Assembly (NCBI GenBank): GCA_001784115.1
Contig: MFPD01000002.1
Span: forward strand, 1-62,563
Direction of reading: 5' to 3'
Source of the DNA: Candidatus Levybacteria bacterium RIFCSPLOWO2_02_FULL_37_18
Lineage (GTDB): Bacteria; Patescibacteriota; Microgenomatia; Levybacterales; UBA12049
Length of the DNA stretch: 62,563 nt
Every line of letters starts with the position of its first letter. Positions within the stretch are counted from its first letter, which is position 1. The translations under genes were made by a program, and so were the position numbers. A model generated the notes under the pieces. That model worked only from the letters and a program-made list of their open reading frames with translations, made no database searches and had not been told where the DNA came from. Positions 2,698 through 52,824 of this stretch are shown piece by piece.

Positions 2698-2760
2698 ATT
2701 CTAATTTAGATTATTCGAATTTTGGTATTGTTTCGAATTTCGATATTTGATATTCGAGTT
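2664..2760. repeat. 7-mer-periodic imperfect hairpin element
   Basis: AAATTCG AAATCCG AAGCACG AAATCCG ... TTTCGAA TTTCGAT ATTTGAT ATTCGAG. Confidence 0.75.
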
Positions 2761-2778
2761 TACGAAATATGCATACTT

Positions 2779-4050
2779 ATGAACTTAATAGATATCCAGA
2801 AATTAGCAAAAACAGATAAAAAAAGCGCAGAAGAAAAACTGCTTGTATTAACTCGGGAAATTTTTCCACAGCTTTCCATTCAGAAAATTTTAATAGATCA
2901 AAAATCATACTCACTTAATTCTGTTTTTGGTTTTATTACTATTGAGAGAAAAGAATACTTTTTTAAATTCCACAGCGAAGAAGGTGAGGAAAAAACCCTT
3001 AAAGAATATTACAACTCAGAGCTTTTATCAAAAAATGGCTTCCCTACTCTATTGCCTGTTTATAAATCAACAAAACCGGGAAAGCAATTTTTAATCTATA
3101 AAAAAATTTCTGACCCAAATGTTTTTGACGTATTAGATAGATTAGAAAAAACATATCTTAAAAATAAAACCTATGATCAAAAACTCAAAACAAAACTAAT
3201 AAAAACAGAAGAATCATTTGATAAACAAATAATCAAAAAATCTTTGCAAACATTAAAAACAGTTCCAGCGAAAAAAGTTGCAAAAGAAGAAATCAATCAG
3301 CTTTTCTATAACAGATTGGTTTCAGATATTACTACTCCCCGACTTGATTTGTTTTATAAAAACAAGAGCATGGGGCTTCCAAATGGAACAATACTTTCTT
3401 TTGAGGATTTGAAAAGATTACATTGGAATATAGATGGTGTATTATATAAAAAAACTATAGATGAACTTATTATAGAAGCAAAACGTCTTCTTAATCCCCT
3501 ACGGCTTACAAGATATCCTGTTATTACCGGTCATGGTGATGACCACAACGGAAATAAATTTTTCACAAAAAAAGGCTTTGTGTATTTTGATCATGCATTT
3601 GCCGGAGAAAATCAATATGCTCTTTTAACATTTATAAAGACAACATTTCACGATTGCCTGGCACATCCCCTATGGCTTTATGATCCAAAAGATTTTAATA
3701 TTGAGTTGTATAATACAATTAAAAAAAATGTGATTGAAATTGAAACAAATTTTAATTGGATTTCATGGGCTCCAGTTAGGGAAGAATTATTATGGATAAA
3801 AATAAAACAACTCTGGGTTCCGTTAATTAAAAAATTAAAATCGAAAAATCTGTTAGAAAAAGAGTGGGAAATATTCATAAGAAGCGCTCTTTTTACCTGT
3901 CCGTTTCTTGTATATAATCTTATTGATGAAAAAAGAATTTCTCCTCTGCATTCATTGTTTGCATTATCACAATGTGTGGTTGTCGGATCAAAATCAAAAA
4001 ACGGACCAATGGAAAAATATTTTGAGTATATGAAAGAGATGCTGAACTAA
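2779..4050 (+). CDS. APH/choline-kinase-like phosphotransferase-fold protein
   Basis: YFFKF Lys strand, HGDDHNGN Brenner-like motif, FDHAFAG Mg-binding motif; start moved to ATG 2779 because the upstream part of the ORF is repeat. Confidence 0.65.
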   Translation: MNLIDIQKLAKTDKKSAEEKLLVLTREIFPQLSIQKILIDQKSYSLNSVFGFITIERKEYFFKFHSEEGEEKTLKEYYNSELLSKNGFPTLLPVYKSTKPGKQFLIYKKISDPNVFDVLDRLEKTYLKNKTYDQKLKTKLIKTEESFDKQIIKKSLQTLKTVPAKKVAKEEINQLFYNRLVSDITTPRLDLFYKNKSMGLPNGTILSFEDLKRLHWNIDGVLYKKTIDELIIEAKRLLNPLRLTRYPVITGHGDDHNGNKFFTKKGFVYFDHAFAGENQYALLTFIKTTFHDCLAHPLWLYDPKDFNIELYNTIKKNVIEIETNFNWISWAPVREELLWIKIKQLWVPLIKKLKSKNLLEKEWEIFIRSALFTCPFLVYNLIDEKRISPLHSLFALSQCVVVGSKSKNGPMEKYFEYMKEMLN

Positions 4051-4073
4051 ATTCAGCATGACAAAGAAAAACT

Positions 4074-4805
4074 ATGATTACAATAATCGACTACGGTCTG
4101 GGAAACCTTACCAGCGTTAAAAATGCCTTGGATAAACTTGGAATTAATAATCAGATTTCCGCAGACTTATCTATTCTAGAAAAATCAGATGCTCTTATTT
4201 TACCAGGTGTCGGTGCAGCTAAAGCAGGAATGCAAAATTTAAAAAAGAAAAAAATCGATCAGGAAATTATTGCACATGTAAAAAAGGGGAAACCATTTCT
4301 AGGGGTATGTCTTGGTATGCAGTTGTTAATGAGTTTTTCGAAAGAAGGAAACGTAGAATGTCTTAATATAATTCCGGGAAGAGTCGTCATTCTGGGGATG
4401 ACTCAGGGCGAAGCGTGGAGGAGGACTCCAGAATCAAAAATAAGCGATTCTGGGCAGAAAACTCAGCTCTCACAAGCCCCGCTGAACGGGGCAAGCCAGA
4501 ATGTGACGGATTACGATTTTAAGGTACCACAAATTGGTTGGAACAACGTAGAAATTCAGAATTCAGAATTCAGAATTCAGAATTCTCTTTTTAAGAATAT
4601 CCCTGATAAGAGTTTTTTTTATTTTGTGCACTCATACTACTGTGAACCGGAGGATAAATCTGTAATTGCAGGAATAACAGAATATGGTATTGAGTTTTGT
4701 TCTGTATTGCAAAAAGAGAATGTTTGGGGAGCGCAATTCCATCCTGAAAAAAGCTCTGATGCCGGCTTACAGATGTTAAAGAACTTCTCAAAAATATGTA
4801 CTTAA
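4074..4805 (+). CDS. hisH: imidazole glycerol phosphate synthase glutaminase subunit, with two in-frame inserts
   Basis: PGVG, GVCLGMQ (catalytic Cys), YFVHSY, QFHPE. Confidence 0.95.
   Translation: MITIIDYGLGNLTSVKNALDKLGINNQISADLSILEKSDALILPGVGAAKAGMQNLKKKKIDQEIIAHVKKGKPFLGVCLGMQLLMSFSKEGNVECLNIIPGRVVILGMTQGEAWRRTPESKISDSGQKTQLSQAPLNGASQNVTDYDFKVPQIGWNNVEIQNSEFRIQNSLFKNIPDKSFFYFVHSYYCEPEDKSVIAGITEYGIEFCSVLQKENVWGAQFHPEKSSDAGLQMLKNFSKICT
4386..4507. repeat. palindromic element inserted in frame in hisH
   Basis: GTCATTCTGG..CCAGAATC..GATTCTGG..CCAGAATGTGAC; encodes about 40 extra aa (ILGMTQGEAW...SQNVT). Confidence 0.85.
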
Positions 4806-4837
4806 GTTTTGAGATTTGAGTTTTGAGTTGTAAATAT

Positions 4838-5644
4838 ATGTTAGTTATTCCCGCCATCGATATTAAAAACGGACAGTGCGTCAGACTTACTCAGGGAGAT
4901 TTTACAAAAGAAAAAATCTACGAGCAAGATCCTGTTGCCATGGCAAAAAAGTTTGAACAGAATGGGCCAGATTTGATTCATATTGTAGACCTGGACGGAG
5001 CAAAAGATGGACTTATGAAAAATAAAAAGGTGATTGAACAAATATCAAAGACTATTCAAGTCCCCATTGAGTTAGGAGGCGGAATCCGTGACAAAAAAAC
5101 AATTGATGGACTTTTATCCTTTGTAGATAGAATTATTTTAGGAACAGCAGCAATTGAAAACAAAGAATTCTTAAAAGAAGCAATAACCAAATATGGAGAT
5201 AGAATCGCTGTTTCTCTTGACGCAAAAGATGGGAAACTCACAACAAGAGGATGGGTTGAGACAACAGATCAAGATGTATTTGATTACGCCAAAGAACTGG
5301 AATCAATTGGGATTCAAACCATAATCTATACAGACATTGCAAGAGACGGTACACTCACCTCCCCTAATTTTAGTTCTATAGAACGATTAAGAAGTTATAT
5401 TTCGTGTTTCCTAATTGCAAGCGGCGGTGTTTCTTCTTTAGAAGATATTAAAAAACTAAAAGAACTTGGAGTTGACGGAGTTATTATCGGAAAAGCTCTC
5501 TATGAAGGAAAAGTAGATTTAAAAGAAACGATTGCGATTTGTCATCCTGAACTTGTTTTCACCGAGTCAGACTCGGTTTCAGGATCTGTTATGAAAGGAG
5601 ATGCTGAACTGAGAATTCAGCATGACACAGTGTATGCTGGCTAA
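4838..5644 (+). CDS. hisA: ProFAR isomerase; C-terminus extended by a palindromic element (5541-5626)
   Basis: [30 protein letters not shown] motifs; tail CHPELV...IQHD. Confidence 0.93.
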
Positions 5645-6389
5645 AAGAATTATACCCTGTCTGGATGTAGATTGTGGACGAGTAACAAAAGGGGTTCAAT
5701 TTTTAAAACACAAGGATGCAGGAGATCCTGTTGAACTGGGAAAATTTTACAGCAATCAAGGCGCGGACGAACTCGTTTTTTTGGATATTACTGCTTCTTA
5801 TCAAGGAAGGAAAACTATAATTGACGTTGTAGGAAAAGTTGCCAAGGAAGTTTTTATTCCGTTTACTGTTGGAGGTGGCATTTCTTCAATTGATGATATT
5901 AAAACAATTCTTCGCGCCGGCGCTGACAAAGTGTCTGTAAACACTGCTGCTGTAAAAAATCCCAGGTTTATTTCCATTGGTGCAAACGCATTTGGTAATC
6001 AATGCATTGTATTGGCAATCGATGCAAAGAAAAAAAACGATTCTTGGGAAATATATATTCACGGGGGACGAACACCAACAGGAATAGATGCAGTTGAATG
6101 GGCAAAAGAAGGAGTTACAAAAGGAGCGGGAGAAATTTTACTAACCAGTATGGATGCTGACGGAACAAAACAAGGATATGATATTGAGTTGACAAAAACA
6201 ATTTCCGAACAGGTTTCGGTTCCGGTAATTGCGTCAGGAGGAGCAGGAAAAGTAGAAGATTTTAGAGATGTGTTTGAACAAGGCAAAGCAGACGCAACAC
6301 TTGCCGCTTCCCTTTTTCACTTCAAAGAGATTACAATAAAAGAGGTAAAAGAATACTTACAAGATAAGAAAATTCCTGTAAGAATATAA
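5634..6389 (+). CDS. hisF: imidazole glycerol phosphate synthase cyclase subunit
   Basis: [35 protein letters not shown]. Confidence 0.96.
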
Positions 6390-6522
6390 ATCCGAATACC
6401 AAAATTCGAAATCCGAAACAAATACAAATGTTCAAAATACAAAAATACAAAACGTTTTTAACATTATTAAATTAGAATTTTGAAAATTGTTTCGAGTTTC
6501 GATATTCGAATTTCGAATTTTT
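6390..6522. repeat. 7-mer-periodic imperfect hairpin element
   Basis: Left arm AAATTCG AAATCCG AAACAAA TACAAAT; right arm TTGTTTCG AGTTTCG ATATTCG AATTTCG. Confidence 0.8.
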
Positions 6523-6528
6523 AAACAT

Positions 6529-6858
6529 ATGAATGTTGACTTTAAAAAAGGAAAAGGACTTATTCCGGCAGTAATCCAAGAATACGGTTCGGATAAAATT
6601 TTAATGCTCGGATTTATGAACGAAGAGGCTTTTAAAAAAACAAAAGAAACAGGCTTTGTGCATTTTTATTCCAGAACAAGAAAAAAACTCTGGAAAAAAG
6701 GAGAAGAATCCGGAAACACCTTAGAGGTTGAAGAAATGTATGCAGACTGCGATAATGATTCAATTCTCATTAAGGCAGTTTTGCATGGAGATGCCTGCTG
6801 TCATACAGGCGAAAAGAGTTGCTTTTTCACAAAGATGTATGATCAAAAGTTATCCTAA
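6529..6858 (+). CDS. hisI: phosphoribosyl-AMP cyclohydrolase
   Basis: YSRTR..LWKKGEESG, DCDND, CHTGEKSCF. Confidence 0.95.
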   Translation: MNVDFKKGKGLIPAVIQEYGSDKILMLGFMNEEAFKKTKETGFVHFYSRTRKKLWKKGEESGNTLEVEEMYADCDNDSILIKAVLHGDACCHTGEKSCFFTKMYDQKLS

Positions 6859-6867
6859 ACATCCGTC

Positions 6868-6966
6868 GTCATTGCGAGTATAGCGAAGCCAGGTACCATA
6901 CGGTACTTGGCGAAGCAATCTATTTTGCTTATGAGATTGCTTCGTCATTACATTCCTCGCAATGAC
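6868..6966. repeat. GTCAT...ATGAC palindromic element
   Basis: GTCATTGCGAG..CGAAGCAATC..GAGATTGCTTCG..CTCGCAATGAC with an inner hairpin. Confidence 0.85.
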
Positions 6967-7266: not shown

Positions 7267-8490
7267 ATGAAACTGCAGACATTAAAAGGTTTCCGGGATT
7301 TTTTGCCAAAAGAGGCCAAAAAAAGGCAATTTGTTATTAACACTATAAAACAGGTGTTTGAGTCCTTTGGTTTTGAACCCTTAGAAACTCCTGCTCTAGA
7401 ATACGAAGAAGTTCTTTTGGGAAAATATGGGCAAGAAGGAGACAAGCTCATGTACCGTTTTGTTGACAACGGAGGAAGAAAAGTCGCTATGCGCTATGAT
7501 CAAACAGTGCCGACTGCTCGCGTTGTTGCTCAATATCAAGAGCTTGCCTTCCCTTTTAAGCGCTATCAAATACAACCGGTATGGCGGGCAGAAAACACGC
7601 AAAAAGGCAGATTTAGGGAATTCCTGCAATGTGATGCTGATACTTTTGGAACCACTTCCCCACTTACCGACGCAGAGGTAATCGCTGTTGCGATACAAGC
7701 TCTTAATACTCTCGGGTTTTCTCAGTTTAAAGTTTTGATAAATGACCGAACTGTGTTTGAGAATTTACCAAAAGAAGCAATTATTGTAATTGACAAACTT
7801 AAAAAAATTGGCGTTGACGGAGTAGCAAGAGAATTAGTTGAAAAAGGAATTGCAAAAACTATTAACGATGCTACTTCGATGATTCGAATCATCGAAGTAA
7901 AAACACTAACAGAAACTGTTACAAAAATCTTTTCTTATTTAAGTTCATTGGGTATTAACTCGAAATATTTTGAGTTCTCTCCGACACTTGCCCGCGGACT
8001 TGATTATTACACTTCAACTATTTTTGAGATAGAAATAGAAGGATATTCTGCCGGCTCTGTATGCGGAGGAGGAAGATACGACAATTTAATTGGACAACTT
8101 GGCGGAAAAGATACACCTGCTGTTGGATTCGCTTTTGGCTTTGATCGGCTCATGGAAGCGCTTGAAGAGTTTAAACTTTTTCCCCAAGAACTTAATCCTG
8201 TTAAAGCATTGGTAACTATTTTCTCAAAAGAATTAGTTGAACAATCAATTTCAATATGTTCTCAACTTCGTTCGAACAATATTTCAACAGAACTTTTCCC
8301 TGATGAAAATACTGCTTTAGAAAAACAATTAAAATACGCGGATAAAAAAGGAATTATGTATGTGGTTATTATTGGCCCGGAAGAAATAAAAGAAAATAAA
8401 GTAACTCTTAAGAATCTGAAAACCAGAGAACAAAAAACCTCTTCACAAAATGACATACTAGAGATTCTTCGTTCTTCGAACTCAGAATGA
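7267..8490 (+). CDS. hisS: histidyl-tRNA synthetase
   Basis: KGFRDFLP, RYDQTVP, GRFREFLQCD, RGLDYY, GGGRYD, C-terminal anticodon-binding domain; TATAAT 6 nt upstream of the ATG. Confidence 0.95.
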   Translation: MKLQTLKGFRDFLPKEAKKRQFVINTIKQVFESFGFEPLETPALEYEEVLLGKYGQEGDKLMYRFVDNGGRKVAMRYDQTVPTARVVAQYQELAFPFKRYQIQPVWRAENTQKGRFREFLQCDADTFGTTSPLTDAEVIAVAIQALNTLGFSQFKVLINDRTVFENLPKEAIIVIDKLKKIGVDGVARELVEKGIAKTINDATSMIRIIEVKTLTETVTKIFSYLSSLGINSKYFEFSPTLARGLDYYTSTIFEIEIEGYSAGSVCGGGRYDNLIGQLGGKDTPAVGFAFGFDRLMEALEEFKLFPQELNPVKALVTIFSKELVEQSISICSQLRSNNISTELFPDENTALEKQLKYADKKGIMYVVIIGPEEIKENKVTLKNLKTREQKTSSQNDILEILRSSNSE

Positions 8491-9386
8491 CAAACCATAA
8501 ACGCTCCCTTGCCTATCTTTCTTTAACCATTGCCTCTGTTATCTGGGGAGCAAACGGCCCGATTATGAAATTTGTTTTAGCCTCAATTCCACCTTTTACC
8601 CTGGCTTTTTTAAGATTTGGAGGAGCGTCACTGATACTCTTTCCATTTGTTTTTAAAAAGCTTTCTATCGCCAAAAAAGATAGAAAAAACGTGATATTAA
8701 GTGCAATTTTTGGCGTAAGTTTAAACATCGGATTTTTCTTTTTAGGACTTAACGCCACAACAGCGTTAAACGCGGGAATTATTGTTGCCTCCCTTCCTAT
8801 TTTTACTCTTATTTTTGCAGGCATATTTTTAAAAGAAAAAGTGGGGAAAAATTTTGTGTTAGGATCACTATTGGGATTATTGGGAATTTTAGTCATAATA
8901 GGAAAAGGTTTTTTTTCAGCTTCAATTTCTCCTTTGGGAGATATTTTAATTCTTCTGGCAACGCTATCGTATGTAATCTACGAAATAATAAGCAAACACT
9001 TAAAAAATTATTCCCCTCTTACCATTATCTTTTATATGTGTCTTATCGGCGCTTTATCATTTTTTCCCTTTGCTTTTTTGGAATACCAAACCAATCCGCT
9101 TTGGATTTACAGACTTTCTCCCGGAATAATTATGGGAATTGTATACGGCATTTTCTTTTCTTCGTTAGCAGCGTATGTATTGTGGCAATGGGCGCTGTGG
9201 CAATTACAAGCATCAAGAGTTGGATTTTTCTTTTATTTAGACCCCATCGTGTCAACAATCACGGCAGTTTTATTTTTATCCGAGCACATTACTCCTTCCT
9301 TTATTTTAGGTTCGTTATTAATTTTTTTAGGTCTTTTTGTTGCCGAAGGCCACTTCCGCCATTACCATGTGATTAATTGTATTTAA
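8487..9386 (+). CDS. EamA/DMT family transporter
   Basis: About 10 hydrophobic segments in two repeats, IWG motif. Confidence 0.85.
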   Translation: MTNHKRSLAYLSLTIASVIWGANGPIMKFVLASIPPFTLAFLRFGGASLILFPFVFKKLSIAKKDRKNVILSAIFGVSLNIGFFFLGLNATTALNAGIIVASLPIFTLIFAGIFLKEKVGKNFVLGSLLGLLGILVIIGKGFFSASISPLGDILILLATLSYVIYEIISKHLKNYSPLTIIFYMCLIGALSFFPFAFLEYQTNPLWIYRLSPGIIMGIVYGIFFSSLAAYVLWQWALWQLQASRVGFFFYLDPIVSTITAVLFLSEHITPSFILGSLLIFLGLFVAEGHFRHYHVINCI

Positions 9387-15218: not shown

Positions 15219-15276
15219 GTCATTCCGAATTTGTTTCGGAATCCCATGTGGGATACTGAAATGAATTCAGGATGAC
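15219..15276. repeat. GTCAT...ATGAC palindromic element
   Basis: GTCATTCCGAATTTGTTTCGGAATC..GATACTGAAATGAATTCAGGATGAC. Confidence 0.85.
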
Positions 15277-21556: not shown

Positions 21557-22828
21557 TTACGAACCGATTTTGAATTCAATCACGTCGCCGTCTTTGACAA
21601 TATAATCCCGTCCTTCAAGCCTTGCTCTCCCCGCTTCCCGCGAACCTTTCCAGCCTTTATTCTGAACAAAATCATCAAAACTTACTACTTCTGCTTTGAT
21701 AAATTTTTTTTCAAAGTCTGTGTGAATAACGCCCGCTGCATCAACTGCTTTTATTCCCTTTGGAACAGTCCAGGCACGCACTTCGTATTTTCCCCCTTGC
21801 CTCGCCGAAGCATCAGCGGAGGCGGGTGCTGTGAGAAATGAAATTAATCCTAATGTCTCGTATGCTTTCTTTATCAACCGCTCCAGTCCGGACTCTTCAA
21901 GACCCAAGTCTCCAAGGTATTCTTTTTGTTCATCTTCCGACAACACAGCAAGTTCCGATTCAATCTTGGCACAGATCACCACCATATTGTCATTCCCGCC
22001 CCGTGTCGTAGCACGGGGGGTAAACCTTGGCATCGTGAAAACGGGGCTCCAACGGGAGTCCATGGATCCCCGATCGGGGTCGGGGATGACAGAAAAAAGG
22101 AGTTGATTATATTCTTCAATTACTTTGGGGATATTTTCTTGTGTATATTGGTCTTCTGCAACATTAAGTACAATAATTTCAGGTTTTGAGGAAAGTAAAA
22201 AAAGATCCTTGACAACCTCCTGTTCTCCATCAATTAACCCAACATCTCTTGCAGGAATTCCCTTATTAAGTAATTCCTCAATTTTATCCAGTATATTTTG
22301 ACTTTTAACTTGAACTTTTGCCTTTTGCCTTTTGCCTTTTGCCTTTTCTAAAGTTTCTAAATCCGCAAGTATTAGTTCTGTTTGAATAACTTTATAGTCA
22401 GACATCGGATCAACCGAACCTTCTTTGATTACATTCGCATCTTCAAAAACTCGAACCACATGAGCAATAATGGAAACTTCCCGGATGTGGGACAAAAACT
22501 TATTACCAAGACCAGAACCTTCACTTGCTCCTTTTACCAATCCCGCAATATCTACAAATTCAACCGTTGCCGGTTTAATCGGCGGCCTCTTTCCAAACAA
22601 CACCTCGGGGGTGGCGCTTGACGACTCCCCCGAGGTTGAGGAACCACTTGCAACAATATCCGCCAAAGCTTCAAGTCTCTCATCCGGCACCGGAATTATT
22701 CCAACATTCGGTTCTATTGTTGCAAATGGGTAATTCGCAGCCAGCGCCTGCTGCTTTTTTAAGAGTGCATTGAACAAGGTACTCTTCCCCACATTTGGTA
22801 AACCAACAATCCCTATTGATAAATTCAT
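21557..22828 (-). CDS. ychF: ribosome-binding ATPase YchF with four in-frame inserts
   Basis: GLPNVGKST, NYPFATIEPN, DIAGLV, GVIHTDFEK, TGS domain. Confidence 0.95.
   Translation of the reverse strand: MNLSIGIVGLPNVGKSTLFNALLKKQQALAANYPFATIEPNVGIIPVPDERLEALADIVASGSSTSGESSSATPEVLFGKRPPIKPATVEFVDIAGLVKGASEGSGLGNKFLSHIREVSIIAHVVRVFEDANVIKEGSVDPMSDYKVIQTELILADLETLEKAKGKRQKAKVQVKSQNILDKIEELLNKGIPARDVGLIDGEQEVVKDLFLLSSKPEIIVLNVAEDQYTQENIPKVIEEYNQLLFSVIPDPDRGSMDSRWSPVFTMPRFTPRATTRGGNDNMVVICAKIESELAVLSEDEQKEYLGDLGLEESGLERLIKKAYETLGLISFLTAPASADASARQGGKYEVRAWTVPKGIKAVDAAGVIHTDFEKKFIKAEVVSFDDFVQNKGWKGSREAGRARLEGRDYIVKDGDVIEFKIGS
21989..22090. repeat. 102-nt palindromic element in frame in ychF
   Basis: GTCATTCCCG..CGGGAGTCC..GGATCCCCG..CGGGGATGAC. 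Confidence 0.85.
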
Positions 22829-26931: not shown

Positions 26932-26962
26932 AACTACCTGCAATTATACCATATAGGCTTTT

Positions 26963-27002
26963 GTTTCCACCCTTGGGGTGGAAACAAAGCTCCACCTGCG
27001 GA
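26963..27002. repeat. CACC-n-GGTG palindromic repeat
   Basis: GTTTCCACCCTTGGGGTGGAAAC..GCTCCACCTGCGGA; near-copies at 51213 and 52735. Confidence 0.8.
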
Positions 27003-27004
27003 AT

Positions 27005-28555
27005 TTAGCGATTTATAAGCAGGACGCGGTTTTTTTTGAATCCGTAAACCTGTTCTACCTGAGAAAAAAAAGAACTGCACAGAGCTCTAAATTCTTCGAA
27101 TTCCTCTGGTTTTTTTTCTTGATATTGACTGTTGTATAAGATTATGCCGTTTTTATTAAGAATCTCTCTAAGTTTTTTTAGAAAGTCCCCTTGGCGAGAT
27201 GACGGTGGATTCAAGGCACCTATGAAAAGATCAACTATAATTAAATCATACTTTCTATTAGCTGGTTTTTTATTCACCCACAAAACCGCATCCGAAATCA
27301 CCACTTTTGATGCTAATTTTGGATCAAGATTAAAGTGTTCTTTGGCAATTTGTACCATTATAGGATCTATCTCAACCGCTGTAATCTTTACATCAGGGAA
27401 GTATTTTTTTAAAAATTCAATAACCGTCCCCCCACCAACTCCAAGTATTAAACAATTTTTAACTTTTAATTTTGAACTTTTAACTTGGCTTATAAGCCTT
27501 CTCCACATCCACACAAACTCTCCTCCGCTTTGAGGGCCTCCTGAAAAAACCGTTTTTGATCCATACGATTTATCTATTAAAATGTGTCCATTTATATTGG
27601 AATGGAATACAGCTTTGGGCTTTTTGGCAAAAAGAGTACTAAATGTATACATTAATTTAAATATAGGGCTGTAAAATTTAATATATGCCGGCGGATATTC
27701 AAGATATTCTCCATGAAACCTGGTTTTAAATTCGGTATAGTTTTTCCATCGCTTATTAACATTTGGATACCGAGGATCATAGACGGATTCGAAATCAAAC
27801 ACTTTCATGCCCAATTTTTTGCCAAGCAAAATCCCCTCCCAAACCAATAAATAATTTGCCAGTAAATCATATCCTCTATTATTAATTCCTGTTTGGAAAT
27901 ACGATATAACAGGCTTATAAAAGCCATACCATACTACAGCGACCGGCTTTTTATCTTTAGGATCCAACCCAAACAATAAAAAAGAGTTATCTTTAAAAGA
28001 AACCCATTTTTTATGAAATTCATCATACGAGGGTACATAAAACTTTTTCATTTTTGAAAGATTTTTAAGAAGTTTATAAAACATTCGAAACTCACTGTCA
28101 TCCTTTTCATCTTTAAAAAATACCGGCTTAACAATTACTCCCATCTCTTTTGCTTTTTTAATATTTCGTCTGGCATTTTCGGAAAATGACTTAAAAATTT
28201 CTGTCTCAAAAGAAGCGATATTTATTCTTCTTGTCGCTGTATGGGCAAATCGAAAAAATGACTCTTGATATCCATTTTTTAGATAGTCTTGCTTGTTGAA
28301 TTTGTAAGCATGAGGTTCAATAACAATATATACACAGTTGTATTTTTTAGCTATTTTGTCGATTTTGGCAAACGGCATTGGGCCGACAGCATGCTGGATT
28401 TTAATAACAGAGTGATTTAATAATGGAACTCTCCTAATATAAATCTGTCTGCCGTCTATGACTTCCACATCCCATCCAAGTTTTTTAAGAAATTCGCCCC
28501 ACTGAAGAAATTGCCTGCCGTCCAATGCGGAAAGTAATACGTTATTTTTAGCCAT
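27005..28555 (-). CDS. FemABX/GNAT peptidyltransferase fused to a spermidine-synthase-like SAM methyltransferase
   Basis: FLQWGEF, FSENARRNIKKA, LLVWEGI..FDF (Fem); CLILGVGGG, VEIDP, YDLIIVD (MTase). Confidence 0.75.
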   Translation of the reverse strand: MAKNNVLLSALDGRQFLQWGEFLKKLGWDVEVIDGRQIYIRRVPLLNHSVIKIQHAVGPMPFAKIDKIAKKYNCVYIVIEPHAYKFNKQDYLKNGYQESFFRFAHTATRRINIASFETEIFKSFSENARRNIKKAKEMGVIVKPVFFKDEKDDSEFRMFYKLLKNLSKMKKFYVPSYDEFHKKWVSFKDNSFLLFGLDPKDKKPVAVVWYGFYKPVISYFQTGINNRGYDLLANYLLVWEGILLGKKLGMKVFDFESVYDPRYPNVNKRWKNYTEFKTRFHGEYLEYPPAYIKFYSPIFKLMYTFSTLFAKKPKAVFHSNINGHILIDKSYGSKTVFSGGPQSGGEFVWMWRRLISQVKSSKLKVKNCLILGVGGGTVIEFLKKYFPDVKITAVEIDPIMVQIAKEHFNLDPKLASKVVISDAVLWVNKKPANRKYDLIIVDLFIGALNPPSSRQGDFLKKLREILNKNGIILYNSQYQEKKPEEFEEFRALCSSFFSQVEQVYGFKKNRVLLINR

Positions 28556-28626: not shown

Positions 28627-29835
28627 ATGGAACGACGTTTTCGACGAATGAGAGATCTCTTGCCTGTACCTGCCTATTCTCAAGCAGATTCGCATGTGTT
28701 ACTTATAGCTCAACATTCTACTCTAAATCCCAATGCGCCAGTTCGATTAAGAAAAAGAGATGTTGGTATTCTCACGATCTCTGCTGCGATAGTTACAGCC
28801 ACAATTGCAGCAGCATCAAAGTGTAACTTTGGGTTTTCGGTTACTACTGATTCTATTCCAACTTCGAATTCGCAGCCAACTTCCCAACCTTTACTTAATC
28901 ACGTTTCTGAACCCATTCCTGTTCCGACTGCAACTGCCACTCCCCAACCAACTGCTACTCCTTCTCCCGAACTACTTCCTACTCCTCAAAAAGACAGATT
29001 AAAAAATATTATGAACATGATGCTAAGAGCAGGAAGCATAGCAGGAGAAAAATCAATCTTTTTTGACCCAATACTTACTGATTCGGAAAGAAGAGCTGCT
29101 TTTTCTGTAATGCAAAACAAAACTGCAAGAATTGAGGCGCGAGAACGATTATGGAAAGACCGAATTGCTCAAGAAAAAAAATTAGGATTTATCTTTAATC
29201 CTGCACTGCAGGAAACATGTAAGCAATTTGGCATCCATGAAGAAGTATTAACCACAGCATGGAAGGTGCATGAAGAACTCGCAAAAACAGGTACCGACAG
29301 TAAACAATCTGTCTATAGACAACTTCCCATCCACTTGAGAGTCCCACCGTTATTTTTAGCCATGATTGTTCAAAGAGAAACAACCGGAGGGATTGATTTT
29401 GGCAACAGATTCTATAAAGACGTGTTTTCCCCGGATCAGATAACCAAGCTCGCTAAATATTTAGCACATGTAAAACCCTTTGGGCTTACAATACAATGGA
29501 ATATAAACTCTTTATTTGCTTCTGCTAATGGATTTTTAGGAATTCCCCAGGTAGCTGTTAACACGCTTCCCTTACTCATGCCTGATACTGATAGAAAAAG
29601 TGAAAACAAAGTCCATAAAGAAGACGGATCGTACTTAAATATATACGACTTATTTGAAGGAATACTGGCTGTCAATTGGATTTTAGTTCACCCGGACAAA
29701 GGCTGGAACAACAACAGTAAGGATTCGTGTTTGAAAGCATCGAACGGGTATGGAAGAAATAATAATTTTGAACAGTTGTGGAATAAAAGTTTTGAAGTAA
29801 ATCAAATGCCTCTTTTTATCCCCAATACAAAATAA
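28627..29835 (+). CDS. membrane-anchored protein with Pro/Thr linker and lysozyme/SLT-like domain
   Basis: Hydrophobic segment, PTATATPQPTATP, AMIVQRET, GIPQ. Confidence 0.55.
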   Translation: MERRFRRMRDLLPVPAYSQADSHVLLIAQHSTLNPNAPVRLRKRDVGILTISAAIVTATIAAASKCNFGFSVTTDSIPTSNSQPTSQPLLNHVSEPIPVPTATATPQPTATPSPELLPTPQKDRLKNIMNMMLRAGSIAGEKSIFFDPILTDSERRAAFSVMQNKTARIEARERLWKDRIAQEKKLGFIFNPALQETCKQFGIHEEVLTTAWKVHEELAKTGTDSKQSVYRQLPIHLRVPPLFLAMIVQRETTGGIDFGNRFYKDVFSPDQITKLAKYLAHVKPFGLTIQWNINSLFASANGFLGIPQVAVNTLPLLMPDTDRKSENKVHKEDGSYLNIYDLFEGILAVNWILVHPDKGWNNNSKDSCLKASNGYGRNNNFEQLWNKSFEVNQMPLFIPNTK

Positions 29836-29863
29836 GTGTGTCATACTGAACTTGATTCAGCAT

Positions 29864-31234
29864 CTAGATTCTAACAATTTTTGTTTTTTCGCCTTTTTCG
29901 TCTATTACATCATACCCTGATTTTCTAATTTTATGCCTGATTTGATCTGACAAATGAAACCGTTTTTGTTTTCTAAGTCCCTCACGTTCATCTATTAGTT
30001 TTTGAACATCCTCCGGCACTTTTATTTCTTCATGCCTGTTTAACTGAAGTCCTAAAATCTTGTCCATTTTATACAAAGACTCTGCTTTGGCTTTTGACGG
30101 GTAATCAGACTTAACCAATTCCCACGCAATAGCCAATGCCTCCGGCATATTTACGTCATCATTTACCGCGTTTACAAACCTTCCCTCGAATTCTGCACAT
30201 CCAATTTTTGGCTCGTCCCATTCTGAAATAATTGATCTCAAATGTTTTAATGCATTTTGCGCTCCATCTAACGACTTGAAAGTAAAATTCATTTCTTGCC
30301 TGTAGTGCGTTTGGAGATATAAGTACCGAAGAGCCAACGGATCAAATCCTTTTTTTTGAATGTCTTCAACCGTATAAAAATTGCCAAGACTCTTACTCAT
30401 TTTTTGCCCATTTACTTGTAAAAAATTATGATGCACCCAATACTTCACAAATTGCTTGTTACTTGCTGCTTGACTTTGCGCAATTTCATTGGTGTGATGG
30501 ATAGTAATGTGATCAATTCCTCCTGTATGGATATCAAATGTAGGGCCTAAGTTTTTCATACTCATAGCACTGCATTCTATATGCCATCCGGGAAACCCAA
30601 TTCCCCACGGACTGTCCCATTCCATTTGACGTTTTTCACCTTTGGACGAAAACTTCCACAAGGCAAAATCTGTTATATTTTTTTTGCCTTCTATCATGTC
30701 TACCCTTGCACCTGCTTTTAATTCATCTGGATTTTGATGAGACAGCTCAAAATAACGGGGAAATTTTGACGTATCAAAATAAATGCCATCTGAAGTCTTG
30801 TAGGTAAATCCTTTTTCTTCCAATATTTGAATTAGGTCAACTTGGTCTTGTATTGCATCTGTTGCATGAATGACAACATTCGGCCGTTTGATATTTAGTA
30901 AGTCGCTAGAATCGAAAAATTGCTTTTCAAATTTTTTGGCAATATCCCACACAGACATGCCAAATTTCTTTGCACCCTTTTCCATTTTATCCTCTCCCGT
31001 ATCGCTGTCAGATGTCAAATGCCCCACATCGGTTATGTTCATGACGTGCTTCACATCAAAACCATTTGCTCTTATGACACGAACCAAAATATCATCTCCA
31101 ACATACCTCCGCATGTGTCCTATGTGCTGATAGTCATAGACAGTCGGCCCGCAGGAATAGATACTAACGTGAAGTGGGTTGATAGGTTTAAATTCTTCTA
31201 CCGAACGTGAAAGTGTATTGTATATTTGTAACAT
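29864..31234 (-). CDS. cysS: cysteinyl-tRNA synthetase
   Basis: CGPTVYDYQHIGH, PGWHIECSAM, KMSKSLGN. Confidence 0.97.
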   Translation of the reverse strand: MLQIYNTLSRSVEEFKPINPLHVSIYSCGPTVYDYQHIGHMRRYVGDDILVRVIRANGFDVKHVMNITDVGHLTSDSDTGEDKMEKGAKKFGMSVWDIAKKFEKQFFDSSDLLNIKRPNVVIHATDAIQDQVDLIQILEEKGFTYKTSDGIYFDTSKFPRYFELSHQNPDELKAGARVDMIEGKKNITDFALWKFSSKGEKRQMEWDSPWGIGFPGWHIECSAMSMKNLGPTFDIHTGGIDHITIHHTNEIAQSQAASNKQFVKYWVHHNFLQVNGQKMSKSLGNFYTVEDIQKKGFDPLALRYLYLQTHYRQEMNFTFKSLDGAQNALKHLRSIISEWDEPKIGCAEFEGRFVNAVNDDVNMPEALAIAWELVKSDYPSKAKAESLYKMDKILGLQLNRHEEIKVPEDVQKLIDEREGLRKQKRFHLSDQIRHKIRKSGYDVIDEKGEKTKIVRI

Positions 31235-31249
31235 AATACTAATAATTAC

Positions 31250-31330
31250 CAATCAACTAATCAACCAATAAATACCAATTTCCAATTATTAGTTGATTTG
31301 TTGATTTGAATATTGGTTGATTAGTTGATT
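31250..31330. repeat. CAAT/ATTG periodic imperfect hairpin
   Basis: CAACTAAT CAACCAAT ... ATTAGTTG ATTTGTTG; similar at 39030-39130 and 49880-49990. Confidence 0.65.
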
Positions 31331-31920: not shown

Positions 31921-32125
31921 CTAATCAACTAATCTACAAGTTTCGCAGTTCAACTCATCCAGATGTCATTGCGAGGAATGGTGAACGAAGTCGAGCCAAA
32001 CGAAGCAATCCCAAAAAGAGATTGCCACGCTTCCTCTGGTCACTCGCAATGACAGAGAACGCGAAACTCGTGTAATTATCCAATTATTAGTTGATTTGTT
32101 GATTTGATATTTGTTGATTCGTTAA
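31921..32125. repeat. nested repeat: GTCAT element (31965-32053) inside a CAAT/ATTG hairpin
   Basis: Outer CAACTAATC / ATTAGTTG arms, AGTTTCGC/GCGAAACT stem, inner GTCATTGCGAG..CTCGCAATGAC. Confidence 0.75.
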
Positions 32126-38511: not shown

Positions 38512-38529
38512 AAAACACCACCTATCATT

Positions 38530-38655
38530 AAAAATTCCAATATCTAAATACTAAATAAATTCAAATGTCTAATGCCAATTCTTAAACAGTTTTTAACTTT
38601 GGTAATTTGTATTTTGATATTATTTAGAATTTACGATTTGTAATTTAGGATTTAG
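38530..38655. repeat. 7-mer-periodic hairpin element, close copy of 47785-47915
   Basis: Shared right arm TTTGG(T/A)ATTTGTATTTT(G/A)ATATTATTTAGAATTTA(C/T)GATTTGT(A/G)ATTTAGGATTTA. Confidence 0.8.
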
Positions 38656-38693
38656 TCTATTCTACTCCAAATCGTAAGGGGTGTAAAGACGAA

Positions 38694-40429: not shown

Positions 40430-42176
40430 AAGAAAGTCTTTGAAGGACTTGTAAGGGAGTTAATAATTCAGATTCACTCTTTGTACGTTCTTTCCATTCT
40501 ATTTTTTCTTCTGTTTTTGAACTTATGACTAACCGTATTGGAATTCCAATCAAGTCAGCATCCGCAAACTTTTCTCCTGCCGACACATTCCCCCGATCAT
40601 CCCAAAGAACTTCAACTCCTTCCTCCTGCAATTTCTTATAAACTTCCTCCGCAATCTCCCTCACCTCGGAGGTGGCCCGCTTCGCCGAAGCTCCAGCGAG
40701 GCGAGCCGAATGGACTCCTCCGAGGTGGATTAGATGAACCTGAAAAGGCGCCACCGCTTCCGGCCACACAATTCCTTTATCATCATGGTAAACTTCTACA
40801 ATTGTGGCCATAGTTCTTGCTAAACCAATTCCATAACATCCCATGTAGTAAGGCTTGGCTTTGCCTTTTTCATCCACAAAATTCGCATCATGCATTTTGG
40901 CAGAATAATGAAATCCCAGTTGGAAAATATTACCCACTTCAATTCCTTTTTTAGCAAAAAAAGGCTTTCCCTCTAACGAAAGATATCCTTCTTTAGCAAG
41001 AGCAATATCTCCTTCCAAATCTGAGGCATAATCCCGGTCAATATTCATATTAAGACGATCCTTGTGCTTTTTATTGGCTCCGCCATAGGCATTTTTAATG
41101 GTACGAAGAGACGTATCTGCCACTACCACCAGTTTGACGTCTTTTTCGATAATTTCTTTAATACCGACCGGAGAAATAAAACCAGGTTCGCTGTTGATTT
41201 TTTGGCGAATTTCTTCGTCTGTCCCGTGACGTAGTTGATAAGCTTTTACCAAATGCATTAGCTTAATTTCGTTTACCTCATAATCGCCCCTGATAATAGC
41301 CAAGATAAATCGTCCTTTTTCATCTACAAATAACACATCTTTAATCTGCTGCCATAACGGCAACCCATGAAGCTTAACTCCGTCTTCCATGGTAGTTCCC
41401 CGAACGGCCTCTACTTCCTGCACTGGTTTTTCTGCTTCACCCACATTTTTTTGGTCTCTTTGAAATTTAGCTACTTCTTCGTGCGCGGCATATGAACCAT
41501 CTTTTGTGGTGAAGAACTTGGACTCTCCTGCTTCGGACTCTACCACAAACTCATGACAATATTCTCCTCCAATATAGCCATTATCTGATTCAACAACGAT
41601 CGTTTTGAGTCCTAATCGATCAAAGATCCTGGTGTATATCTCCCACATACTCTGGTATTCCTTTTTAAATTCTTCCTCTGTTGCGTGAAAGGAATACGCG
41701 TCTTTCATGACAAATTCCCGAAGCCTTAAAAGTCCTCCGCGAGTTCGCATTTCGTCTCGAAACTTTGATGAGAATTGATAAAGATTAAACGGCAAGTCTT
41801 TATAACTTATCTGGAATTTGCGAACCAAATCAACCAGCATTTCTTCTGCGGTACCGCCTAAAACAAATTCAAACTTATTCCTGTCTTTGATTGTCATAAG
41901 TTCAAATCCTACCGAACTTGTCCTGTTGGTTTCTTCCCACAAATATTTCGGATGCAAAATAGGAGTCACAACTTCCTGAGCACCCGCTTTATCCATTCCT
42001 TCTTTGGTGATTTTTTTGATTTTGTCGTGCACCCGAATTCCCAGAGGCAAAAGATAATACCGTCCGGCTGTACTTTCCCGAATAAACCCGGCCCGATACA
42101 ACAACGTATGAGAGACAAGTATTGCATCTTTTGGAGTATCTTTTATAGTCTTACCAAATAATTTTGAATAACGCAT
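40413..42176 (-). CDS. proS: prolyl-tRNA synthetase (bacterial type, with editing domain)
   Basis: RDEMRTRGGLLRLREFVMKDAYSF, IEVGNIFQLG, GCYGIG, FADADLIGIP. Confidence 0.96.
   Translation of the reverse strand: MRYSKLFGKTIKDTPKDAILVSHTLLYRAGFIRESTAGRYYLLPLGIRVHDKIKKITKEGMDKAGAQEVVTPILHPKYLWEETNRTSSVGFELMTIKDRNKFEFVLGGTAEEMLVDLVRKFQISYKDLPFNLYQFSSKFRDEMRTRGGLLRLREFVMKDAYSFHATEEEFKKEYQSMWEIYTRIFDRLGLKTIVVESDNGYIGGEYCHEFVVESEAGESKFFTTKDGSYAAHEEVAKFQRDQKNVGEAEKPVQEVEAVRGTTMEDGVKLHGLPLWQQIKDVLFVDEKGRFILAIIRGDYEVNEIKLMHLVKAYQLRHGTDEEIRQKINSEPGFISPVGIKEIIEKDVKLVVVADTSLRTIKNAYGGANKKHKDRLNMNIDRDYASDLEGDIALAKEGYLSLEGKPFFAKKGIEVGNIFQLGFHYSAKMHDANFVDEKGKAKPYYMGCYGIGLARTMATIVEVYHDDKGIVWPEAVAPFQVHLIHLGGVHSARLAGASAKRATSEVREIAEEVYKKLQEEGVEVLWDDRGNVSAGEKFADADLIGIPIRLVISSKTEEKIEWKERTKSESELLTPLQVLQRLSSRTED
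40662..40728. repeat. composite palindromic element in frame in proS
   Basis: CACCTCGGAGGTG-[GCTTCGCCGAAGCTCCAGCGAGGCGAGC]-GACTCCTCCGAGGTG; encodes HSARLAGASAKRATSEV. Confidence 0.8.
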
Positions 42177-44665: not shown

Positions 44666-45655
44666 TTATTTTTCTTTTACCCCGTGGCCGCCGAATGCTT
44701 GGCGAAGATCTGCAACAAGTTTGGCAGCAAAGGAATTTTGAACTTCTGGATTAGTCTGTGATTGTCTTCTAAATTCAAGTGAGCCTTTTATTATAGGAAC
44801 AGGGACTCTTTCGTTTTCCGCTTCTTCTACAGTCCATTTCGCTTCTCCGGATTCTTCAATTACTCCAAGTACTTGCTCCAAACTCTTATCCTGATCAAAA
44901 ACTTCAACTGTTCTGTCCAGCATAAATCCGGATACCAATGTTCCTTTTTGATATAACCGAGCTACTTTGAGAAGGTCGAATTTGTATTCTGCTTTTTGCA
45001 GTACTCCAAATCCTTCCCCCAAACTCTGCATAAATCCATACTCAATACCATTATGTATCATTTTTACAAAATGCCCTGCGCCACCACTGCCAAAATATTC
45101 GTGCCCGCCATGTGGTTTTGCCAACGAATCTAAAATTGGCTTTATGAATTCATATCCGCACTCATCCCCACCCGCCATCAGCGGATATCCATGGTGAGCG
45201 GCTATCACACCGCCGCTCACTCCAATTCCCAAAAACCGAATACCTTTATTTTTAAACTGTTTAAATCGCTCTTCTGTATCCCGAAAGTGCGCATTTCCGC
45301 CATCTATTGCAATATCATCTTTCGAACAAAGAGTAAGAAGTTCATCCAAAACCGCTCTCGTTGCTTCCCCAGCCGTCACCATACACCACACTATACGTGG
45401 AGATTGTAATTGCCGAACAAGCTCTTCTATCGTTCCTGCAATTATTAGTTTTTCTGAGAAAGTATTTAGTATTTTGTATTTAGTATTTTGTATTTGCTTT
45501 GAATTTCTATATTCGGATTTCGGATTTAATTGAGATATGAGTTCTTCTACTGGCTGAGGTGATCTATTCCACACAACAACTTCATGTCCTTCTTTGAGGA
45601 GCTTAAAAACCATTCTCGAACCCATCTTGCCAAGTCCAATAAATCCAATTTTCAT
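44666..45655 (-). CDS. gnd: 6-phosphogluconate dehydrogenase (decarboxylating, short type) with 7-mer insert
   Basis: GLGKMG, IDGGN, GVSGG, GHFVKMIHNGIEYG. Confidence 0.95.
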   Translation of the reverse strand: MKIGFIGLGKMGSRMVFKLLKEGHEVVVWNRSPQPVEELISQLNPKSEYRNSKQIQNTKYKILNTFSEKLIIAGTIEELVRQLQSPRIVWCMVTAGEATRAVLDELLTLCSKDDIAIDGGNAHFRDTEERFKQFKNKGIRFLGIGVSGGVIAAHHGYPLMAGGDECGYEFIKPILDSLAKPHGGHEYFGSGGAGHFVKMIHNGIEYGFMQSLGEGFGVLQKAEYKFDLLKVARLYQKGTLVSGFMLDRTVEVFDQDKSLEQVLGVIEESGEAKWTVEEAENERVPVPIIKGSLEFRRQSQTNPEVQNSFAAKLVADLRQAFGGHGVKEK

Positions 45656-47784: not shown

Positions 47785-47915
47785 GAATTTCTAATCTCTA
47801 ATATCTAAATCCTAAACAAATTACAAATTTTCAAAATCTAAAATCCTAAACAGTTTTGTGTTTTGGTTATTTGTATTTTAATATTATTTAGAATTTATGA
47901 TTTGTGATTTAGGAT
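47785..47915. repeat. 7-mer-periodic hairpin element
   Basis: AATCTCT AATATCT AAATCCT AAACAAA ... TTATTTAG AATTTATG ATTTGTG ATTTAGG. Confidence 0.8.
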
Positions 47916-48637
47916 TTAATTAATACTGCTCGTACTGGTGAACCATCGGACGAAACTCTCAAAGGCAGGCATATCAACTTGTATTCTCCTTCTGGAACTT
48001 CTGATAGATCAAGTCCTTCCGCAATTACAATCCCTGCTTTTAAAAGAGCTGTGTGAACCGGATGTCCTGGATTTTTTTCTTTCTCAATTCCCAGAAAGTC
48101 TGTCCCTACTAAAACAGCTCCTTTTTTAAGGAGGTATTCTGCTCCTTTTAAAGAAAGTGATATATAGCTATCAGGAAATGTTGGTTGTTTAAGGAGTTTA
48201 TAATTTCCTGTTTTAAAAAGTATCCGATCTCCTTTTTTAATACTGAATTGAACGAGATCTTCTGGAAGAATTTCTAGATCATACGTCATTCTGGCAAGGT
48301 CGCCCAGGCGACCGCGTCCAGAATCTCTCTTTTTTTGATTCTGGAGTCCTCTGGATAAACCAGAGTCCCCAGAATGACGACTAAACATGTCTGCTAAATC
48401 CAAAACTCGGCACGGGCCAATTAGTTTTTCTAAATCTATCATATCAATATTTGATCCTTTTTCAACAAAATGTGAAGGAGCATCAATGTGAGTTCCTGTG
48501 TGGCTTGAAAAGGATAACTGGGAAAACCCAACGCCGTGACTTTTTACAGTAGTTTTTACTTCGATATGAGGTTTCGGATCACCCCACCACACAAGCATGT
48601 TGTCGTGAATTGGAAGGGTTATGTCATAAATCTTCAT
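47909..48637 (-). CDS. cyclase family (kynurenine formamidase-like) metallohydrolase with in-frame palindromic insert (48285-48378)
   Basis: HTGTHIDAPSHF, GTDFLGIE, HTALL, DGSPVRAV. Confidence 0.9.
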   Translation of the reverse strand: MKIYDITLPIHDNMLVWWGDPKPHIEVKTTVKSHGVGFSQLSFSSHTGTHIDAPSHFVEKGSNIDMIDLEKLIGPCRVLDLADMFSRHSGDSGLSRGLQNQKKRDSGRGRLGDLARMTYDLEILPEDLVQFSIKKGDRILFKTGNYKLLKQPTFPDSYISLSLKGAEYLLKKGAVLVGTDFLGIEKEKNPGHPVHTALLKAGIVIAEGLDLSEVPEGEYKLICLPLRVSSDGSPVRAVLIKS

Positions 48638-51186: not shown

Positions 51187-51212
51187 ATTTCTCCAAGTTC
51201 TAATCTTGTATG

Positions 51213-51249
51213 TACACCCTTGGGGTGGAAACGAGACTCCACCCGCGGA
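51213..51249. repeat. CACC-n-GGTG repeat (35/37 identical to 52735-52771)
   Basis: TACACCCTTGGGGTGGAAACGAGACTCCACCCGCGGA. Confidence 0.85.
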
Positions 51250-51267
51250 TTTTTTAAGATTCAATCT

Positions 51268-51726: not shown

Positions 51727-51739
51727 AATCCTCCCCTTG

Positions 51740-52682: not shown

Positions 52683-52734
52683 TAAGATAGATACATCTTA
52701 TCAAAGTTTAAACAAGAATACAAGTGATTCGATT

Positions 52735-52771
52735 TACACCCTTGGGGTGGAAATGAGGCTCCACCCGCGGA
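52735..52771. repeat. CACC-n-GGTG repeat
   Basis: TACACCCTTGGGGTGGAAATGAGGCTCCACCCGCGGA. Confidence 0.85.
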
Positions 52772-52824
52772 AAACACCTCTTTCTTGCTTTTTAGAAGCA
52801 TTTGGCATACAATGGCTTTCTTGT

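Follow-up and report, generated by a model that had tools for sequence, protein, structure and literature searches.

The hisH gene (4074–4805) carries, in frame, a 122-nt palindromic element on the plus strand (4386–4507, read as VILGMTQGEAWRRTPESKISDSGQKTQLSQAPLNGASQNV), which is one of eight such elements in the window, i.e. the whole stretch of 62,563 nt that was analysed. A first-pass annotation, made from the sequence letters, had described repeats with GTCAT...ATGAC ends in hisH, the hisA tail, ychF and a cyclase gene, together with intergenic siblings at 345, 6868, 15219 and 31965, and every one of them was recovered where it had been placed. The other copies within genes are found in the C-terminal tail of hisA (5541–5626, plus strand, 86 nt; gene 4823–5644), in frame in ychF (21989–22090, minus strand, 102 nt or 34 codons, read as VIPDPDRGSMDSRWSPVFTMPRFTPRATTRGGND; gene 21557–22828, minus strand) and in frame in a cyclase or kynurenine-formamidase-like gene (48285–48378, minus strand, 94 nt, read as HSGDSGLSRGLQNQKKRDSGRGRLGDLARM; gene 47909–48637, minus strand). 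Among the intergenic copies, all on the plus strand, those at 345–418 (74 nt), 6868–6966 (99 nt) and 31965–32053 (89 nt) are of the ATTGCGAG type, and the copy at 15219–15276 (58 nt) is a minimal head-to-head dimer of two canonical units. The 6868 copy lies between hisI (PRA-CH, ending at 6858) and hisE (PRA-PH), where the Pfam match begins at residue 28 of an ORF that starts at 6907. The 345 copy is placed between a terminator-like hairpin of the His leader (about 295–318) and the hisG start at 463; readings of 138–448 as a His leader or T-box must allow for part of it being a dispersed repeat.

Each of the eight elements is an inverted (head-to-head) pair of hairpin units with the tags facing outwards, and their ends agree at 10–12 of the 14 outermost positions, which bears out the common ends and two-hairpin layout of the earlier description. 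The hisH copy departs slightly at its right end, which reads ATGTGAC, i.e. ATGAC with two extra nucleotides. Each unit opens with a (C/T)GTC tag, followed by an AT-starting stem of 8 bp; then come a loop, the other strand of the stem and a short tail rich in C. The stems encountered in the window are ATTCCGAA, ATCCTGAA, ATGCTGAA, ATACTGAA, ATCCCCGA, ATTCTGG and ATTGCGAG. All seven strict units have a TGTC tag, and the units of the 48285 and 4386 copies have CGTC. Loops of the simple units span 3–7 nt (5 nt in four of seven), while the units of hisH and the cyclase and the left unit of hisA have, instead of a simple loop, 20–28 nt that contain a nested hairpin. Thus both units of the hisH element have ATTCTGG/CCAGAAT basal stems and long structured loops; in the hisA element the nested hairpin belongs to the left unit and the right unit (5598–5627, minus strand) is canonical. 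The inner hairpin GGTCGCC/GG(T/C)GACC that had been reported as common to the 345 and 48285 copies is indeed present in both. The simplest arrangement is that at 15219–15276, TGTC-ATTCCGAA-TTTGT-TTCGGAAT-CCC plus its inverted partner, with covariance model E values of 3e-10 and 3e-6.

Single units also occur, mostly at gene ends. The canonical unit at 4036–4063 (minus strand, E 3e-9) forms the 3' end of an ORF at 2722–4050, where it encodes the last residues EMLN and holds the TAA stop inside its loop; a second canonical unit (29839–29866, plus strand, E 5e-8) lies between two convergent genes (28627–29835, plus strand, and 29864–31252, minus strand). At the 3' end of rpsB, a minus-strand gene, the TGA stop sits within the ATGAC tag of the unit at 51738–51765 (plus strand, E 5e-5). 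A degenerate unit at the hisS/EamA junction (8461–8492, minus strand, E 0.006) has a tag whose ATGA comprises both the hisS stop (8488–8490) and the start of the EamA transporter gene (8487). The density thus amounts to eight two-unit elements and four single units per 62.6-kb window, in DNA with a G+C content of about 38%.

The frequency of these units exceeds that expected by chance. Seven strict tag-plus-hairpin units were observed, against 1.07 in 200 dinucleotide shuffles (maximum 4), and all eight elements fold better than their shuffled versions (z -2.7 to -7.5). A covariance model that had been built exclusively from 50 units in the genomes of other organisms, belonging to other phyla, matched eight window units with E values from 3e-10 to 6e-3, followed by three ATTGCGAG-type units at E about 0.05; the in-gene units of hisH and the cyclase, with their structured loops, score poorly. 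The published SRM pattern, HGTCWYN(0-2)YYVSBRHN(0-5)WNVSBRGN(0-2)RNCYNB, has one match in the window, at the ychF unit 22062–22091, where 0.05 would be expected, and the remaining units miss it probably because their stems are richer in A/T. In a loose hairpin scan of the window, with loops of up to 45 nt, GTC was not enriched over other triplets, and an Rfam search of the window matched no family.

The reading frame of the host gene passes through all four in-gene inserts without a stop codon. Two frames are used, in which either GTC is read as Val or CAT as His, and the gain in length relative to orthologs is always in whole codons (38 residues in HisH, 34 in the cyclase and about 30–34 in YchF). 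The extra residues of HisH fall between two strands, and among the 120 best orthologs listed (196–233 aa) none is long enough to hold the insert except by means of an N-terminal extension. In the AlphaFold model the core has a pLDDT above 90, and the insert, residues 109–153 between strands 100–106 and 155–161, has values of 27–36, so that it is predicted to be a disordered loop; a surface loop had been expected. The fold of HisA, as judged by homology to solved structures, ends at residue 239, and the element adds a C-terminal tail of 34 residues that runs into the likely hisF start (ATG at 5634). In the cyclase, the additional residues follow a conserved His and are absent from all 12 aligned orthologs. 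The 120 best cyclase orthologs listed are mostly 194–216 aa long, and in the four aligned ones of at least 231 aa the surplus consists of N- or C-terminal extensions or of a 9-residue insert elsewhere. By these comparisons, no other protein among the 120 best orthologs listed for HisH, or among those for the cyclase, has the insert. Conservation as a protein segment across the clade, which would have spoken against mobile repeats, is therefore not seen for hisH and the cyclase, while in ychF 17 of 38 orthologs are filled and the elements differ. The claim that the catalytic motifs of the host genes are intact also holds, as C79/H223/E225 of HisH, the G-motifs of YchF and the H46-H56 motif of the cyclase are invariant in the alignments.

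The elements in hisH and the cyclase are homologous and align from end to end (AGTCGTCATTCTGGGG...GGACTCCAGAATCAAAAA...GATTCTGG...GCCAGAATGACG). Peptides encoded within the inserts include, from translation, VILGMTQGEAWR and SMDSRWSPVFTMPR, and the conservation of the frame suggests that the inserts are translated as peptide. Target duplications, which the first-pass annotation had proposed to define at the insert boundaries, were sought at the junctions in hisH, ychF and the cyclase, and none was found. At three sites native V, H and D codons coincide with GTC, CAT and GAC of the tag; as these are matches of 3 nt, they give only a hint of microhomology.

Could the inserts be removed before the protein is made, in the manner of introns or inteins, or be artefacts of assembly? 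Either is very improbable. All four inserts are free of stops and leave the host frame undisturbed, neither of which would be needed if they were removed; they show neither intron or intein features nor a match to Rfam. The hisH region is present in nine runs from six studies, and the HisH protein was found on 22 contigs. Contigs of four independent runs cover 4000–4579 with no differences, and one covers 4558–5800; because these four assemblies reproduce the hisH insert base for base, it is not an assembly artefact. No empty-site allele lacking the insert, and no indel, was detected in the contigs of the four runs. Since contigs drop rare variants, a missing empty-site allele is weak evidence. 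The assertion that the repeat is active in this lineage thus has support on the evolutionary scale only, given the unique hisH and cyclase inserts. Depth on metagenome contigs spikes over the units, and more than 60 different spacers were seen between the same two units, so the repeats must be abundant in these communities.

The same units are found far beyond the window. Among 197 units from other genomes, 178 have a [TC]GTC tag, 188 an 8-bp stem starting with AT and 181 a 5-nt loop, with a C[TC]N tail, and behind the invariant GTCAT one sees 17 distinct stems, all of them perfectly paired. At least 120 genome stretches, drawn from many phyla, contain the exact unit GTCATCCTGAA-N5-TTCAGGATC, usually as part of an inverted dimer; among its hosts are Sphingomonadaceae, Bacteroidota, Gastranaerophilales, Treponema, Elusimicrobiota, Rickettsiales and several groups of the Candidate Phyla Radiation (CPR). 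A metagenome scan for the left unit of the hisH/cyclase subfamily returned at least 130 units on at least 120 contigs; among the units listed, 36 form dimers of 57–117 nt and 56 lie in stop-free frames of at least 250 aa. Members of this subfamily reside in frame in at least 19 identified genes, which by Pfam encode CarB, three class-I tRNA synthetases, ATP-dependent DNA ligase, MutS, UvrD and two RecJ proteins, as well as topoisomerase I, a P-type ATPase, GMP synthase, ThyX, an ATP synthase subunit, anthranilate synthase and membrane proteins. The best named relatives of HisH and YchF come from Levybacteria, Roizmanbacteria, Daviesbacteria and Patescibacteria, which marks the window as DNA of a CPR bacterium of Microgenomates/Levybacteria type.

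With this distribution, the idea that the inserts are lineage-specific loops, produced by local slippage or duplication and alike by chance, has hardly any probability left. Heptamer arrays and untagged GC-rich hairpins do occur in frame in the window and might be taken as products of such a process, but the same units turn up repeatedly, both within the window and in over 120 genomes from many phyla and over 120 metagenome contigs, and the hisH and cyclase elements can be aligned along their length.

These features are those of the CGTC REPs, for which families CGTC-1 to -4 have been described by Di Nocera, De Gregorio & Rocco 2013 (PMC3733652). As defined there, a CGTC REP has an unpaired CGTC or TGTC (or CCTC) tag, a stem of 8–9 bp starting with A-T, T-A, a loop of 4–5 nt and a short tail; such repeats are dispersed in high copy number, mostly as head-to-head dimers with variable spacers, and are mostly located just downstream of ORFs and transcribed, with occasional in-frame intragenic copies (PMC3733652). 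The families described are from five phyla, mostly alpha-Proteobacteria; in that account of their distribution candidate phyla are not named, and in its account of the families no dedicated enzyme was found (PMC3733652). RPE-4 and RPE-6 of R. conorii are equated there with CGTC-4 and CGTC-1, and Neisseria dRS3 is also included in the superfamily; for classic RPE-1 the description of the families makes no such equation (PMC3733652). The elements of the window resemble the CGTC REPs as described in their tag, AT-starting stem, C-rich tail, head-to-head dimers, location at ORF 3' ends and in-frame copies. They differ from that description in that many window units have long loops with nested hairpins, and in that the hisH/cyclase subfamily has about every second of its metagenome copies within a long ORF. 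By their anatomy, the window elements are CGTC/TGTC-tagged REPs, or Ssn-related motifs. Our literature search found no description of this repeat class in the Candidate Phyla Radiation or the Levybacteria group.

The likeness to Rickettsia palindromic elements (RPEs), which was the core of the first-pass annotation, can now be put more precisely. As in the RPEs, palindromic repeats are tolerated in frame in housekeeping genes (hisH, ychF, cyclase), to which they add peptide; they are repeated, absent from the orthologs of hisH and the cyclase, and predicted to form a disordered loop. The host differs: it is a groundwater CPR bacterium with a tiny genome, free-living or epibiotic, whereas Rickettsia is obligately intracellular. 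Classic RPE-1 exceeds the present elements in length. The term 'analogous', however, says too little, as the units fit the CGTC/TGTC REP definition, to which RPE-4 and RPE-6 belong according to the published family assignment. The kinship with RPEs is based on this equation of RPE-4 and RPE-6 by Di Nocera et al. (2013), and not on Rickettsia sequences.

An indication of the enzyme that may be involved came from related loci. In one of them (L169), a 403-nt segment (278–680) has the termini of the hisH/cyclase type enclosing a GIY-YIG ORF (PF01541, E 3e-14), and the TGA stop of this ORF is located inside the inverted right unit. The GIY-YIG gene of the cassette has about 95 residues and is Ssn-type; the ORF has no sequence relative among solved structures and no NCBIfam family above the cut-off. 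Tagged units were also found at most 200 nt upstream of GIY-YIG ORFs in L158, L159, L178, L044 and L089, and an inverted unit at or near the GIY-YIG stop in L158, L159 and L169. The loci L169, L158, L159 and L178 were obtained from the subfamily scan, while L044 and L089 are other related loci. The 62.6-kb window itself has no Ssn/GIY-YIG gene. As L169 has the same termini around its GIY-YIG gene, the window elements look like the cassette minus the gene.

Neisseria provides the biochemical precedent. SsnA is a GIY-YIG nuclease of 94 residues that binds and cuts the Neisseria NTS (CGTCATTCCCGCG...GCGGGAATC) as single-stranded DNA, the cut being made next to the NTS, and ssnA homologues across phyla are flanked by SRMs (Chenal et al. 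2025, PMC11893778). NTS and SsnA together modulate transformation in Neisseria, and neither Patescibacteria nor intragenic translated copies are mentioned in that study (PMC11893778). The CPR elements share with the NTS/SRM-SsnA system the CGTCAT-stem-loop-stem hairpins and the small single-domain GIY-YIG genes flanked on both sides (L169). They differ in that a single window unit fits the SRM pattern, and the cassette is known from related loci and the cleavage from Neisseria only. There is a further likeness to REPIN-RAYT systems, in which GTAG-tagged REPs are associated with a single-copy enzyme gene for an IS200/IS605-like tyrosine transposase: tagged hairpins, inverted doublets and an enzyme gene flanked by its own repeats are found in both, but the window tag is (C/T)GTC instead of GTAG and the flanked gene encodes a GIY-YIG protein instead of a Y1 transposase. 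An IS-derived MITE would differ by its target-site duplication and by a parent encoding a transposase, whereas the cassette that resembles a parent here encodes a GIY-YIG nuclease. The MITEs of Coxiella burnetii, discussed with 'implications for protein and small RNA evolution', are presented as IS derivatives minus the transposase (PMC5896051), and we liken our elements to them by that description only, not by sequence.

Taking these observations together, we consider it probable that the elements are a gene-less, MITE-like form of a cassette in which tagged REP hairpins bracket a GIY-YIG (Ssn-type) gene of about 95 residues.

The ychF gene is informative about how the elements move. Its element is located between the G4 (NVAE) and G5 (CAKIE) motifs. 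The inserts of 38 YchF orthologs from Microgenomates (364–441 aa) fall into three clusters by position, and 17 of these proteins have one at the window's site. In six loci (L124, L125, L126, L127, L130 and the window) one and the same codon is occupied, with unchanged frame and orientation, by elements that differ; those of the five further loci are mostly of the ATTGCGAG type and all end in ...AATGAC. On a tree of ychF built without the insert columns, the filled state requires 13 changes, compared to a mean of 12.2 for shuffled labels, and monophyly of the filled alleles is rejected (AU p 6e-15). Monophyly is likewise rejected for the eight most similar inserts, a group chosen after a first tree had been viewed, even with the flank columns removed as well (p 5e-8). 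The 25 residues upstream of the insert nevertheless show 57% identity among filled alleles versus 40–41% in the other comparisons, a contrast reached in none of 500 permutations, while the rest of the gene has 71% identity in all classes. Polyphyletic filled alleles with a common upstream flank imply that the history of the insert, together with some 25 codons upstream of it, is not that of the rest of the gene. Such a history fits a recombinational (homing-like) spread, the alternative being selection on the flank, and it makes homologous recombination between lineages at a fixed site at least part of the mechanism. A strain variant, P0124, may add to this: its YchF is 100% identical to that of the window (242 of 242 residues) downstream of site 1 and 85% identical upstream, and the hairpin of site 1 is absent. 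This split also points to recombination unless P0124 is a chimeric assembly; an exact search for P0124 found no contig.

From these data it could be argued that the elements spread mainly by allele exchange at fixed sites, i.e. through homologous recombination or gene conversion (natural transformation being one possible occasion), with little transposition and with the hairpins marking or promoting the boundaries of exchange. The six ychF loci with differing inner sequences at one codon, the polyphyletic alleles with their common flank and the P0124 variant (if not chimeric) all speak for it. On the other hand, no donor allele is known for the inserts of hisH and the cyclase, which are species-unique among the 120 listed best orthologs of each, and the hisH/cyclase subfamily has been found in no fewer than 19 distinct genes, at numerous unrelated sites, a pattern that calls for de novo insertion. 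We therefore regard allele exchange as the main route as possible, if somewhat unlikely. We are a little more hesitant about a bolder reading, in which the hairpin pairs of the CPR are homing-type cassettes at fixed sites in conserved genes, passed between lineages together with a short flank and driven by an Ssn-type GIY-YIG nuclease acting on single strands of transforming or replicating DNA; this we consider unlikely. The ychF data themselves point to fixed-site recombination at least as much as to free transposition.

If the elements are the gene-less form of the GIY-YIG cassette, as we favour, the tagged hairpin, extruded in single-stranded DNA, would be the recognition site of the nuclease, by extension from SsnA and the NTS of Neisseria. 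Copies might then arise when the cut DNA is repaired by, or recombined against, an element-bearing template, and in ychF homologous recombination at a fixed site between lineages would account for at least part of the spread. That the nuclease takes part in the copying is thus inferred from the biochemistry of another phylum; we know of no GIY-YIG nuclease that catalyses transposition. As almost no intergenic space is available, copies would persist in three situations only: at gene ends, where the ATGAC tag may even supply a TGA or an ATG; in C-terminal tails; and in tolerant loops that offer a stop-free frame, where they would be translated as disordered peptide.

Units located exactly at gene 3' ends, where they supply stop or start codons, are numerous enough to raise the question of a host function. 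The hairpins might be kept as terminators, mRNA stabilisers, translational pause sites or Ssn-controlled boundaries of DNA uptake, with the in-gene copies being functional and not merely tolerated. It would agree with this that the REPs described from other bacteria are mostly found just downstream of ORFs and are transcribed (PMC3733652) and that Neisseria NTS, with SsnA, modulates transformation (PMC11893778). Yet orthologs often have no in-gene insert, or have one of another sequence and length, such remnants as VQH or TSFAQD at ychF site 2 suggest decay, and no Rfam family was matched, so that we judge retention for a host function improbable.

With these elements a known repeat class, the CGTC REPs or Ssn-related motifs, to which the literature assigns some RPEs, reaches into the Candidate Phyla Radiation, and they show how often such repeats become translated where a genome has almost no non-coding space. 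They also link dimers that have no gene to a GIY-YIG cassette whose ends are identical, which bears on the question of which enzyme, if any, serves the CGTC REPs. In ychF, different elements at the same codon and a history of insert and flank apart from that of the gene provide a testable hint on how the repeats move. A practical consequence is that proteins predicted from CPR genomes are enlarged and distorted by such inserts, which can give rise to spurious stops, starts and tails and also break assemblies. Should the homing-type reading be true, it would mean that nucleases drive, throughout an entire radiation, a systematic remodelling of the loops of housekeeping proteins, and REPIN/RAYT would be joined by a second type of partnership between REPs and an enzyme.

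Several other features were noted in the window and related loci. A public scaffold from a near-identical strain (L001, 483–490) lacks 110 nt relative to 51980–52089 of the window; this difference was rejected as an element, as it removes the conserved core of rpsB between TTGGAAG/TCGGAAG repeats, and is probably an assembly error at these repeats. The same scaffold has an N-gap at the hairpin region of rseP, also probably an assembly error at a repeat. The ORF at 2722–4050 (442 codons), between hisD and hisH, has no match in Pfam at E<1e-5; the HGDDHNGN in it resembles the catalytic loop of kinases of the APH/choline-kinase type, and in the related locus L003 its position is taken by hisC, a PHP phosphatase and hisB. 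In a metagenome locus, L194 (3–3068, minus strand), a class-I tRNA synthetase has a histidine-phosphatase domain (His_Phos_1) between the halves of its catalytic domain, besides its hairpin unit. Within hisH, an array of about 4.5 copies of the heptamer AATTCAG (4553–4585) is also in frame (EIQNSEFRIQNS); on metagenome contigs the depth at this array peaks at about 500–2500x, from which it must be very common elsewhere in these communities.

Hairpin inserts that are GC-rich and have no GTCAT tag are found in frame as well. The ychF gene (minus strand) has one of 22 aa at 22583–22651, with the stem CCTCGGGGG/CCCCCGAGG, and an 11-aa insert, PASADASARQG, at 21790–21830; PSFAKASEGQW-like peptides recur at the latter place in other YchF orthologs. 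A GC-rich segment of 105 nt (40639–40743, -44.8 kcal/mol) in a prolyl-tRNA-synthetase-like gene (tRNA-synt_2b + tRNA_edit + HGTP_anticodon) is probably an in-frame hairpin insert of a different family, and like segments occur in a 6PGD-like gene (45151–45240, -27.7 kcal/mol) and in rseP (49601–49670, -20.4 kcal/mol). An intergenic motif with a small hairpin, CACCCTTGGGGTGGAAAC..CTCCACCCGCGGA, is present in three copies (26958–27006, 51205–51253 and 52727–52775), the second being at the 5' end of the tsf ORF (50623–51264, minus strand) and the third just upstream of an ORF at 52747–53676. Finally, AT-rich intergenic blocks of periodic 7–8-nt units (AAATTCGAAATCCGAAA and like), related to one another in both orientations, are located at 2654–2765, 6387–6530, 38525–38667, 45458–45531 and 47786–47931.
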